A stretch of DNA of 49,985 bases from an uncultured bacterium (lineage in GTDB: Bacteria > Patescibacteriota > Minisyncoccia > Phycocordibacterales > CAIJYI01), in the NCBI GenBank assembly GCA_903824855.1, contig CAIJYI010000005.1:1-49985 (forward strand), written 5' to 3'. Each line of letters starts with the position of its first letter. The stretch's first letter is position 1. Below the pieces are notes generated by a model, which worked only from the letters and a program-made list of their open reading frames with translations, had not been told where the DNA came from and did no database searches. Below, one piece after another: positions 1 through 3,966 of this stretch. The translations under genes and the position numbers were made by a program.

Positions 1-12
1 CCCCGTCTCGCC

Positions 13-137
13 TGCCCTTGCGAGGGCATGGCTCCGACCTTCAAGTCTCCCGCGCAAAGACAAGCAGTTGTCTTTGCTCTCCGGCGCAAAAAAATCGCCG
101 TCTGGGCGATTTTATTGTGCCGGAGGGGAGACTTGAA
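13..137. repeat. Branched inverted repeat overlapping the tRNA-Leu 3' end, including an intrinsic terminator hairpin
   Basis: TTCAAGTCTCCC (40-51) is the reverse complement of GGGAGACTTGAA (126-137). Bases 79-99 pair with 105-125 at 19/21. Side hairpins are GCAAAGACAA-GCAG-TTGTCTTTGC (54-77) and TGCCCT-TGCG-AGGGCA (13-28). Confidence 0.8.
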
Positions 138-199
138 CTCCCAAGCCTTACGGCACACGATTTTGAGTCGTGCATGGTTACCAATTTCATCACTCCGGC
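118..199 (-). tRNA. tRNA-Leu(CAA); CCA not encoded
   Basis: The minus strand reads GCCGGAG-TGATGAAATTGGTAACCAT-GCACGA-CTCAAAA-TCGTG-long variable arm-GGGAGTTCAAGTCTCCC-CTCCGGC-A. This gives an acceptor stem, anticodon CAA, a GTTCAAGTC T-loop and discriminator A. Confidence 0.95.
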
Positions 200-240
200 T
201 TATGTCGTATATACTATCTTTTTTTCGCAAATAAATCAAT

Positions 241-275
241 AAAAAAACGACCTTCGAGAATTGAAGGTCGTTTTT
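241..275. terminator. Bidirectional-type intrinsic terminator
   Basis: AAAAAAACGACCTTCG-AGAA-TTGAAGGTCGTTTTT hairpin with A/T tracts, just after the 289-852 gene. Confidence 0.75.
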
Positions 276-288
276 ATTCTTTGAATGT

Positions 289-852
289 TTATTGTGCGGT
301 AAACGTCGATGAGATCATTTGGCCGTTGTTAGTAAGAGGTTTATCGGTATCCATTCCGAAGATTTGGTCGCCGTTATCACTCCACAAAACAACATAATAC
401 TTCCTCCCTGCTTCGGTACCTCTCAATAGTTCTACTGTTGTTGCGCCTGTCGTTCCTTTCGGTAACCATGATGCACCGAGAACATTTCCCATTGATCCAT
501 TTAGGTCTTCTCGAACGACAATCCAACTATCATTTTTTAATGAAACATTCTTCACAAAAACAGATTTTCCTGCGGCCAATTTAGCATCCACGCTAACACT
601 GCTCAAATTTGATGTTTTTACAACCGGCGCGATAACTGACGTCTTAATGGTTTCACCTTTCTTTGGTGTCACATCGATCGAGACGACATTTTTCTTTTCT
701 GATTCTTTTTGCTCAGTTTTAGTAACTTCACCCGCTTCGCGTCCTTTAAAGGTTCTTCCAACAACAAAGCCAAAAATCAATCCTGCTGCGATTACTCCAA
801 CAATAAGGATTTTCTGCTCCTTCAACTCGTTCATGAGAGAATCTATTTTCAT
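289..852 (-). CDS. Hypothetical membrane-anchored protein with a C-terminal beta-rich extracellular domain
   Basis: N-terminal TM (ILIVGVIAAGLIFGFVVG), charged linker, then a WIVVRED..G..GNVLGA domain. Confidence 0.8.
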   Translation of the reverse strand: MKIDSLMNELKEQKILIVGVIAAGLIFGFVVGRTFKGREAGEVTKTEQKESEKKNVVSIDVTPKKGETIKTSVIAPVVKTSNLSSVSVDAKLAAGKSVFVKNVSLKNDSWIVVREDLNGSMGNVLGASWLPKGTTGATTVELLRGTEAGRKYYVVLWSDNGDQIFGMDTDKPLTNNGQMISSTFTAQ

Positions 853-947
853 ATAAATGATAAATAATTATTAATTCGCAATACTATTTTCCGTGAATTC
901 AATAAAAAAGTCAACTTCACTTTTTGACATAAAATGGTATTAAAAAT

Positions 948-1526
948 CTATTCTTTCACCCCGACTTTAACTTTCGGAGAACGGATAAGCGCACCGTTAA
1001 GCAGATATCCTTTCTGAATTACCTCCATAATCTTGTTTTCATCTTCAGGTTTTTCGACCGTAACATTTTCAACGGAAGTATGAATATTCGGATCAAACAT
1101 TTCTCCGAGAGGAGAAAGTTGTTTCAAACCATTTTGTTCAAGAATTGAAAGCAATTGACTGTAAATATATTCCACTCCGGTTCTCCAGTTTTTATCAACT
1201 TTTTCCCATGATTCTTTATTTGCGAATGCCATGTCAAAACTGTCCAGTGCGGAAAGCACATCAAGAATTATTTCCTTATTTGCAGATTTAACAAATTCAA
1301 TTCGAGATTTTTCTTCTTCCTTTCTCGCGTTGATAAAGTCAGCTTTTGATCTCTGCCAACCGGTGAGATATTCATCGCGTTCTTTTTTTACGAGTTTTAA
1401 TTCATCTCGAAGTTTTTTGATTTTTGCCTGAGGAGCTTCTTCGTCATTATCTTGCTCCGGTTCAAAAACCACATCATCTGCAGTCGTTTCATCTTCGGTT
1501 TCTTTTATTATTTCATCATCGTTCAT
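948..1526 (-). CDS. grpE: Nucleotide exchange factor GrpE
   Basis: Motifs WQRSKADFINARK, GEMFDPNIH and VIQKGYLLNGALIRSPKVKV. Start moved to the ATG at 1526 (MNDDE). Confidence 0.95.
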   Translation of the reverse strand: MNDDEIIKETEDETTADDVVFEPEQDNDEEAPQAKIKKLRDELKLVKKERDEYLTGWQRSKADFINARKEEEKSRIEFVKSANKEIILDVLSALDSFDMAFANKESWEKVDKNWRTGVEYIYSQLLSILEQNGLKQLSPLGEMFDPNIHTSVENVTVEKPEDENKIMEVIQKGYLLNGALIRSPKVKVGVKE

Positions 1527-1590
1527 AAATGCTATTTTTTTATACTCTTTTGCCAAAATTGTAACACAAAATACCGCTTTTTGAAACATA

Positions 1591-2574: not shown

Positions 2575-3966
2575 ATGTCACAAAACCAAAACAAGGCATT
2601 TAGAATACCTCCCCAAAGTATCGAGTCCGAGAAGGCACTGCTCGGTTCTATTATGCTTCGTCCGGAAGCATTATATGACATCATGGATTTTCTTCGCGAC
2701 GAATCTTTCTATGCCGAAAAACATCGCATCATTTTTCAGGGAATAATGGATCTTTTCGGGAGGCATGAACCAATCGACATGCTTTCTCTCTCAAACCGGT
2801 TAAAAGAAAAAAATGTTCTTGACGGTATCGGAGGAAGTGCATATATTGCCGAACTGGTAAACACAGTCCCCTCTTCCGCTAATGCAAAACATTACGCTGA
2901 TACTGTTCAGAAAAAGCATGTTCTCCGTAGTTTGATTGATGCGTCTAATCGCGTTTCTGAATTTGGATACAACGAAGCAGAGGAATTGGATTTTACTTTA
3001 GATAAATGTGAGAAAGAAATTTTTCAGGTGACATCGATGACCTCCAATCAGAAATTTTACAGTATGAAAGAAACGCTTGACGGTGCATGGGAGAGACTTG
3101 ACCGACTCACAAAATCAAAAGAAGAGCTTCGAGGAGTCCCGACCGGGTTTCGAGGACTCGATGCCAAACTTGCAGGTTTCCAAAAATCAGACCTTATCAT
3201 TCTCGCTGCTCGACCTTCTATGGGAAAAACTTCTCTCGCTCTCGACATGGCACGCATATCCGCTCTCAAATACAAAACGCCGGTTTGTTTCTTCTCACTC
3301 GAAATGAGCGCCCAACAACTCGTCGACCGTATGTTGGCATCGGAAGCGCGCGTTGATTCCTGGAAAATTCGCACCGGTGCCAAAAATATTACCGACGATG
3401 AGTTTTCTCAAATCCGTGATGCCCTTGCCCGTCTTTCCACCGCACCGATTTTTATTGATGACCAGGCAGGCAATAACATTATAAAAATGCGATCAACGGC
3501 AAGACGAATCAAAAGCGAACACGGACTGGGTTTGATTGTCGTGGACTATCTCCAGCTTATGGCCCCAAGTCGCGCCAGTGATAATATGGTTCAGCAGGTT
3601 ACCGAGATTTCACGCGGATTAAAACAGCTTGCTCGAGAACTCGATGTTCCGGTGCTCGCTCTCTCACAGCTCTCCCGCGCCGTCGAACAACGCGGGGGCA
3701 AACCGAGACTTTCCGACCTTCGTGATTCCGGATCAATCGAGCAGGATGCCGACGTCGTTATCTTCATTCATCGCGAACAAAACGAAGAAGGTGGAGGAAG
3801 AAAACAAAATGCAGAAATTCTTATTGAAAAACACAGAAATGGTCCGACGGGAAAAGTAGATCTCTATTTTGACGGAGACAAAACGACATTCTTGGATATT
3901 GAAGAAAATATACCGATGCCGGCCGGCGGAGGAATGGCACGCAAAGATGATTTTGATGGATTCTAA
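2575..3966 (+). CDS. dnaB: Replicative DNA helicase
   Basis: N-terminal PPQSIESEKALLG, Walker A AARPSMGKT, IVVDYLQL, LSQLSR, DLRDSGSIEQDAD and KHRNGPTG. Confidence 0.98.
   Translation: MSQNQNKAFRIPPQSIESEKALLGSIMLRPEALYDIMDFLRDESFYAEKHRIIFQGIMDLFGRHEPIDMLSLSNRLKEKNVLDGIGGSAYIAELVNTVPSSANAKHYADTVQKKHVLRSLIDASNRVSEFGYNEAEELDFTLDKCEKEIFQVTSMTSNQKFYSMKETLDGAWERLDRLTKSKEELRGVPTGFRGLDAKLAGFQKSDLIILAARPSMGKTSLALDMARISALKYKTPVCFFSLEMSAQQLVDRMLASEARVDSWKIRTGAKNITDDEFSQIRDALARLSTAPIFIDDQAGNNIIKMRSTARRIKSEHGLGLIVVDYLQLMAPSRASDNMVQQVTEISRGLKQLARELDVPVLALSQLSRAVEQRGGKPRLSDLRDSGSIEQDADVVIFIHREQNEEGGGRKQNAEILIEKHRNGPTGKVDLYFDGDKTTFLDIEENIPMPAGGGMARKDDFDGF

Follow-up and report, generated by a model that had tools for sequence, protein, structure and literature searches.

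Why should a tRNA gene be followed by a mirror image of its own 3' end? The question is raised by the start of the window, as we call the whole stretch of DNA analysed here, which consists of the first 49,985 bases of contig C5 from a small-genome bacterium of the candidate phyla radiation (CPR; G000) with a genome of 1.1 Mb in 45 contigs and about 40% G+C. On the minus strand of this stretch, ARAGORN places a tRNA-Leu(CAA) gene at 117-199 (Rfam RF00005 at 118-199, 54.7 bits), in which CCA is not encoded. An earlier note, made from the letters alone, had described beyond the tRNA 3' end a 21-bp stem (19/21) and a perfect 12-bp stem, a 10-bp hairpin between them, a U7 tract and a further hairpin at 13-28, and all of these were recovered. 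It offered two readings, a non-autonomous element whose inverted arm is templated from the host tRNA, or an antisense RNA able to unfold the pre-tRNA. ORFs adjoining the tRNA gene lie at 289-852 and 948-1589 (minus strand) and at 2575-3966 (plus strand); judged by eye, their translations are a 187-aa protein with a hydrophobic N-terminal stretch, a 213-aa GrpE-like protein and a 463-aa DnaB-helicase-like protein.

The repeat behind tRNA-Leu(CAA) and its missing half

Reading away from the tRNA gene on the minus strand, the tail of the gene leads into an intrinsic-terminator-like hairpin followed by a U7 tract, both seen in the sequence and by inverted repeat (88-116; stem 95-99 / 105-109, U7 at 88-94). 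Next comes arm a (78-87), complementary to the 3' strand of the acceptor stem, to the discriminator and to the initial bases of the trailer. A repeat search of window 1-260 joins these parts in one inverted repeat of 21 nt (79-99 / 105-125; 19/21 or 90% complementary, 5-nt gap), which is the terminator hairpin lengthened by the acceptor 3' strand and its complement; the terminator-like hairpin is the tip of a long palindrome made by the tRNA tail and arm a. Further on, the inverted copy is interrupted at the acceptor/T-stem junction by a perfect 10-bp hairpin, HP1 (54-77; stem 54-63 / 68-77), with the conserved loop CUGC. It resumes as arm b (40-51), the complement of the T-loop and of the T-stem 3' strand (tRNA positions 54-65), for which the same search gives the inverted repeat 40-51 / 126-137 (12 nt, 100% complementary). 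In the family consensus, arm a corresponds to helix 1, HP1 to helix 2 and arm b to helix 3. The remaining bases, 1-39, hold the first part of a conserved core (HP2, with an internal loop), identified by blastn, by Logan contigs and by a match to our covariance model R1 (C5:5-38, model positions 49-82, E 2.1e-7), and broken off where the contig ends; the small hairpin at 13-28 forms the tip of this core hairpin. Folded as minus-strand RNA, window 1-199 reaches -97.4 kcal/mol (z = -7.3), and none of 200 shuffles folds as well.

The other half of the structure was located by a blastn search of window 1-140 against the genome. Positions 1-44 recur at six other places with 86-98% identity, and more weakly at three, and positions 83-133 recur at the very end of contig C22 (58067-58117), 50 of 51 positions being identical. 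At this end, a second terminator copy and a copy of the tRNA-Leu tail are followed by the entry into the core, and then the contig stops. Together with Logan loose ends at 83 and 133, the search delimits in the window the first copy of a direct repeat (83-135, minus strand), which comprises the tRNA 3' end from the T-loop onward, the trailer and the terminator. The loose ends at 133 run from the second tail copy into the core, and those at 83 run into the flank found on C22. Logan contigs also span the junctions of the window copy: record 12 of X2 corresponds to 9-203, record 4 of X1 to 9-112, and record 18 of X4 to 1-130 with 13 extra letters ahead of position 1. This support comes from four DNA runs, all of one study, three of which may be the source sample.

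Positions 1-116 are what the contig end leaves of one copy of a repeat of about 150 nt, namely the half nearer the tRNA. The direct copy of the tRNA tail and the second terminator that belong to it lie at the end of C22, and the remainder of the core (HP3), like the direct copy, is off the window. The guess of the earlier note that the structure extends to the left was right, since the window starts at base 1 of C5 and the missing part is on C22. Its premise that integrative elements leave direct, not inverted, duplications of tRNA ends has become moot, the full element having both. In the organism itself the element is real and complete; the assembly broke inside it because its parts are repeats; such repeats break assemblies at tRNA genes, and here one of them parted C22 from C5.

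In Rfam searches of window 1-1000 and of ten full loci, only tRNA reached threshold. The 5' end of an RNase P RNA had been considered for window 1-45 and was rejected, as the only RF00010 match of the genome is complete and is found on C45. This match (G000:C45:6243-6683) covers 441 nt against a model of 367 positions, and its score of 65.5 bits is below the gathering score of 100. By eye, arrays of a 9-base repeat are seen in inverted orientation just before and inside the gene, which suggests a repeat palindrome inserted in rnpB.

One module with arms specific to each tRNA

Eight copies that we compared share a common plan. In the direction of the tRNA they are made of the tRNA, a spacer (usually a terminator), arm a, HP1, arm b, HP2, HP3 and the direct copy. 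Around HP1, whose loop is CUGC, the full copies have AG before and CGY after the hairpin, and the core is composed of two hairpins, HP2 with its internal loop and HP3 ending in GUGAC. The direct copy of the tRNA tail begins at T-loop position 56 and is often followed by a second terminator resembling the first; the direct repeats vary from about 20 to 65 nt, and at 50-65 nt they include the terminator. Taken together, arms a and b are the complement of tRNA positions 54 to 73 plus the trailer, with HP1 inserted at about the 65/66 junction. In the tRNA-Met copy, read by eye, the inverted copy extends across the trailer, a non-trivial one, and across the terminator (3 mismatches in 29), which points to DNA or the primary transcript, and not the mature tRNA, as its template. 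For the origin of arm a only four acceptor positions are informative: two match the complement of the 3' strand, among them the C1xA72 mismatch of the initiator-like tRNA-Met, one matches the 5' strand and one neither. It is the T-loop complement in arm b that really argues for an inverted copy.

To which tRNA the arms belong was read from 54 copies, retained from 59 R1 matches in 49 loci after the removal of five, namely a place found twice, two truncated matches and two weak ones on the reverse strand. A tRNA gene lies on the same strand within 400 nt upstream of 43 of the 54 copies, mostly 16-70 nt off. In these 43 copies, the local-alignment score of the direct copy is 17.1 with the own tRNA against 6.5 with other tRNAs, and that of the inverted copy is 11.0 against 7.2. 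The direct copy and the tRNA tail are identical at 722 of 750 positions (41 copies). The loci have the module, that is, HP1 and the core, in common and differ in both arms and in the direct copy, which follow the neighbouring tRNA.

The covariance-model search gave 23 R1 matches at E <= 1 in G000, and for 16 of its 46 ARAGORN tRNA genes there is one no more than 200 nt downstream, on the strand of the tRNA. Beyond this genome, 51 of 61 genomes (60 relatives and G000) and 45 of 54 genera in the order have R1 matches, at most 35 in one genome; the other 10 genomes gave no R1 match. A phylum-wide sample yielded matches, which were weak, in 8 of 151 genomes, G000 included. Comparison of the two samples therefore indicates a family mainly of this order: a gene-less module of about 150 nt that occurs behind one in three tRNA genes in a 1.1-Mb genome, and in most genera of the order. 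The earlier note had proposed looking behind other tRNAs for inverted copies of their own 3' ends next to a shared core, and such copies are there, at 16 of 46 tRNAs and with higher arm scores for the own tRNA. That the structure might occur only here, lacking a shared core, which the note gave as the contrary outcome, is contradicted by a core shared at many tRNAs and in 51 of 61 genomes. Of its two readings, the linkage to tRNA genes (16/46 tRNAs, 43/54 copies) and the own-tRNA arm scores thus fit the non-autonomous element with an arm templated from the end of the host tRNA gene.

Comparison between species of one genus showed that copies are gained or lost. The number of element-carrying tRNAs is 16 in G000, 11 in G001, 7 in G003 and 7 in G005, and the elements of tRNA-Leu(CAA) and tRNA-Leu(CAG) are common to all four. 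At tRNA-Gly(GCC), the element occupies the site in G000 and is absent from the syntenic sites in G003 and G005; the difference of about 178 nt is the module plus a second T-loop-to-terminator copy. Tandem arrays consist of two or three units head to tail, some of them within tRNA operons without a terminator. A tree of the cores with arms removed contains two subfamilies, and the genome label changes 19 times on it against 29.5 in shuffles (0/200 as low), a clustering by genome to which the near-identical units of the G004 array contribute. At tRNA-Leu(CAG), cores of different subfamilies are found in G000, G001 and G003. The site differences, the arrays and the core tree therefore show gain, loss, amplification and exchange within genomes. 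Five members of the genus have tRNA-Leu(CAA), and all of them retain its element; in these orthologues arm b and the direct copy are unchanged, the hairpin stems have changed with compensation and some copies carry extra inserted hairpins. Such retention is as compatible with a selected function as with a passenger.

Some copies are decayed, truncated or nested. R1 matches away from a tRNA gene were seen in G000 on C24, at the end of C17 and, weakly, on C4. The C24 orphan (G000:C24:21713-21866) is complete, its arms and direct copy match no tRNA among 124 loci, and about 7 nt of a tRNA end are left upstream; ARAGORN found no tRNA-Asn in the assembly. Among viral contigs, 19 stretches contain a core 17-mer, and only one of them is the element, with no tRNA in its 817 bases. 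This locus (L126; IMGVR_UViG_3300033463_005745, 2709-3525), filed as viral, has two R1 matches and may be a fragment of a CPR genome; by eye its copies look tandem or nested, part of one last hairpin being repeated after the next element.

Further tRNA loci of G000 carry related or other duplications. Behind two tRNA-Glu genes (G000:C41:30757-30924 and C44:57-225) there is a second core type, in which the inverted arm complements the last tRNA bases and the trailer, not the T-arm, and a direct copy was not recognised. Behind tRNA-Ser(TGA), G000:C4:20052-20230 is a miniature version without an R1 match, made of a terminator, a 15-nt inverted copy of the T-loop and T-stem, a core of about 30 nt with GCGAAGC and a perfect direct repeat of about 65 nt that consists of the tRNA tail, trailer and terminator. 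About 110 nt downstream of tRNA-Ile(TAT) (G000:C37:89639-89884), a direct copy of the 3' part of that tRNA, of 46 nt or more, starts in the anticodon stem with a GCGAAGC stretch ahead of it and is ended by the contig; this is a different kind of duplication.

Fold, mode of spread and rival explanations

RNAalifold, applied to six copies, pairs arms a and b with the direct copy and predicts three hairpins. In this model, the arms and the direct copy form a rod with a predicted three-way junction. The tRNA-Gly copy (G000:C12:2929-3077) alone folds at -88.1 kcal/mol (z = -10.6). In the 59-row alignment, 94.3% of the cells are paired, against 65.6% in shuffles and 37-51% with slid partners; helix 2 (HP1) has 99.8% of its cells paired and helices 1 and 3 have 87.6% and 94.8%. 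As this alignment was fitted to the structure and strand of the model, its covariation and G-U counts are inflated: both sides change in 53 of 55 pairs, including 9 of 9 in helix 2, with strong covariation in all seven helices, and the tRNA-sense strand has 132 G-U/U-G cells against 28 A-C/C-A, one G-U pair being kept in 40 of the 49 rows with letters. Compensatory-looking changes in DNA hairpins can also come from template switching, without selection. In paired columns, 21 differences between the direct copy and the tRNA tail were found: in 12 of them the tRNA alone pairs with the arm, in 3 the direct copy alone does and in 6 both do, so there is little sign of a cis stem kept by compensation.

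What would such an RNA do to the tRNA ahead of it? In the thermodynamic fold of a read-through tRNA-Gly transcript, the tRNA tail is paired with the inverted arm, a calculation that leaves out co-transcriptional folding and termination and so is not evidence of function. The antisense RNA of the earlier note is to this extent thermodynamically possible in read-through. In the complete element, however, the same arm pairs with the element's own direct copy, and unfolding of the pre-tRNA therefore stays a possible reading that our results do not support. A run of at least five T lies between the tRNA and the element in 33 of 45 copies and is absent in 12; the terminator-like runs ahead of the 33 argue for low expression.

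The search for an associated enzyme covered three Pfam families, PF00078, PF00589 and Y1_Tnp. G000 gave no match to PF00078 (reverse transcriptase), a single one to PF00589 (tyrosine recombinase) and four to HUH Y1. Of the 51 genomes with the element 37 have Y1_Tnp, as do 4 of the 10 that lack the element; among the 14 element genomes without Y1_Tnp, G013, G035, G050 and G056 hold 10-17 copies. Several identities were rejected in this respect. A retroelement with a tRNA primer-binding site is at odds with the PF00078 result and with an arm that complements the encoded trailer, not CCA. A MITE or REPIN with shared terminal inverted repeats and a fixed short target duplication does not agree with arms that follow the neighbouring tRNA or with direct repeats of about 20 to 65 nt, and the occurrence of the element does not depend on a cognate HUH Y1/RAYT transposase (37/51 against 4/10). 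A tRNA-integrating island does not fit an insert of about 130 nt that is non-coding, or one PF00589 match for 16 tRNA targets.

We consider it probable, with moderate confidence, that the element is a dispersed, gene-less and tightly folded passenger repeat, linked to tRNA genes and spread by host replication and recombination. It would have no enzyme of its own, and replication and recombination of the host would both spread and homogenise it. Recombination between the two direct copies could give rise to arrays, and possibly to small circles, and gene conversion would homogenise the cores. It is tempting to propose that hairpin-mediated template switching copies the flanking tRNA end into the arms, each arm continuing the terminator palindrome; this step is a proposal. 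The RNA of the element would be made together with the tRNA, and in it the direct copy could neutralise the anti-tRNA arm, which would otherwise favour unfolding of the pre-tRNA. Movement intermediates, such as a circle or a fresh insertion within one population, were not seen.

Rather unlikely, but to be taken seriously, is that the repeat is a selected small RNA gene, whose rod-shaped RNA is cut out by tRNA-processing enzymes and acts on tRNA metabolism. Since the terminal helix copies the acceptor and T stems of the neighbouring tRNA, it would be excised by those enzymes, and the RNA could then possibly, as a decoy, draw off enzymes or toxins that recognise the acceptor/T helix, or use its anti-tRNA arm to sense or sequester read-through pre-tRNA. 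The strong covariation in all seven helices, the conserved G-U pair and the excess of G-U over A-C cells agree with such an RNA, as do the retention of the tRNA-Leu(CAA) element in five of five genus members with its stems compensated, the copies within tRNA operons without a terminator and the position of HP1, which departs from the helix between its acceptor and T-stem parts, just where a tRNA would have its body. A precedent may be seen in E. coli RrA, RrB and RrF, which the account in PMC8144298 gives as made by read-through, processed, and bound by Hfq and CsrA. However, the carrier tRNAs differ widely between close species and 10 of 61 relatives have no match, the terminal helix continues through discriminator and trailer and so leaves no tRNA-like single-stranded 3' end, mutations of the direct copy are mostly uncompensated in the arm, and decayed, truncated and nested copies are found.

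The direct repeats of tRNA 3' ends that start in the T-loop and flank the insert would also be expected of att scars, that is, attL and attR with a short remnant, left by islands or phages that entered tRNA 3' ends through tyrosine integrases. We regard this origin as very improbable, because it cannot explain an inverted tRNA-end copy split by a conserved hairpin and would have to account for one homologous non-coding module, about 130 nt long, behind each of 16 tRNAs in a genome with a single PF00589 match; moreover, the direct repeats reach 50-65 nt with the terminator included, and of the 19 core 17-mer matches in viral contigs only one is the element, its locus having no tRNA. As for a chance palindrome or an artefact of assembly at the contig end, the place of the feature at the very start of the contig is what speaks for it, and the fold-back artefact was raised in the earlier note as well. 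Logan contigs from the four runs nevertheless cross the junctions of terminator, arm, hairpin and core, there are many loci at which a complete copy is found well within a contig, the element occurs in 50 other genomes and no shuffle out of 200 folds as well, so that we give this explanation hardly any credence.

Comparison with known repeats and recombination sites

The T-loop is the classical crossover place of tRNA-targeting tyrosine integrases. Like the islands that such enzymes insert into tRNA genes, the element is bracketed by direct repeats of the tRNA 3' end that begin in the T-loop, and copies of a tRNA tail could thus be mistaken for integration scars. Unlike these islands, it has no integrase or cargo, combines many tRNA targets with one core and contains an inverted copy of the target. 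With REP/REPIN and MITE-type repeats it shares a small, non-coding, hairpin-forming and dispersed nature, and HUH Y1 genes are present in G000; it differs from them in that the arms are locus-specific instead of fixed terminal repeats and the flanking duplication is variable (20-65 nt). The integron attC and CTX phage attP sites are folded single-strand recombination sites, and the likeness to them lies in a hairpin of inverted and direct copy that rebuilds the target-site duplex, with an extra-helical feature in the stem. In contrast to integron attC, no integron integrase and no cassette genes accompany the element.

The nearest layout is that of the tRNA-linked repeats (TLRs) of E. coli. 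These have been known since 1978 and, as presented in PMC8144298, were still without a known function in 2021. [quoted passage not shown] In the K-12 tyrT-tyrV locus, we found four RF00391 (RtT/RttR) matches in tandem (133-138 bits). The last 19 nt of each repeat are a copy of the tRNA-Tyr tail from within the T-loop onward, and its fold opens on the 5' side with a 10-nt complement of this copy, both being paired in the Rfam consensus. For the tyrT/rttR region under stress, a preprint (bioRxiv 10.1101/2024.07.17.603846) reports raised exonuclease-resistant coverage, which is not proof of circles.

Our element agrees with the E. coli TLR/RtT repeats in its place directly behind a stable-RNA gene on the same strand (16/46 tRNAs; 43/54 copies), in a 3' end that repeats the tail of the upstream gene (722/750 positions; 50/51 in the window copy), in a 5' arm complementary to the 3' copy that closes the fold, and in its tandem arrays. 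It differs from RtT in an inverted copy that is longer (about 20 nt, through acceptor and trailer) and split by a conserved hairpin, and in a different core, used by one family for 16 different tRNAs in one 1.1-Mb genome; neither window 1-1000 nor any of ten full loci matched RF00391 at E <= 1. Another difference from the TLRs is that CCA lies outside the CPR repeat, because these tRNA genes do not encode it. Literature searches on tRNA-linked repeats, on repeats behind tRNA genes, on RtT and on Parcubacteria structured RNA turned up no account of this family. Judged by sequence and layout, the element is a tRNA-linked repeat in the E. coli sense, with the same plan and a different sequence family.

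The comparison raises the questions of how a gene-less module gains its arms from each new tRNA neighbour and whether its RNA is used. Mirrored and direct copies of the tail at each site, in a layout that E. coli TLR/RtT repeats share, would point to a general copying process. We can only tentatively suggest, as something possible rather than probable, that an undescribed process of this kind works at the 3' ends of stable RNA genes, by template switching or by circles that re-enter at the T-loop, or else that RNAs mimicking the acceptor/T helix take part in the surveillance of tRNA 3' ends. The CPR bacterium displays the TLR layout far more clearly than E. coli does, with one core, 16 tRNA partners, filled and empty sites, and arrays, and it thereby makes both the acquisition of the arms and the use of the RNA testable.
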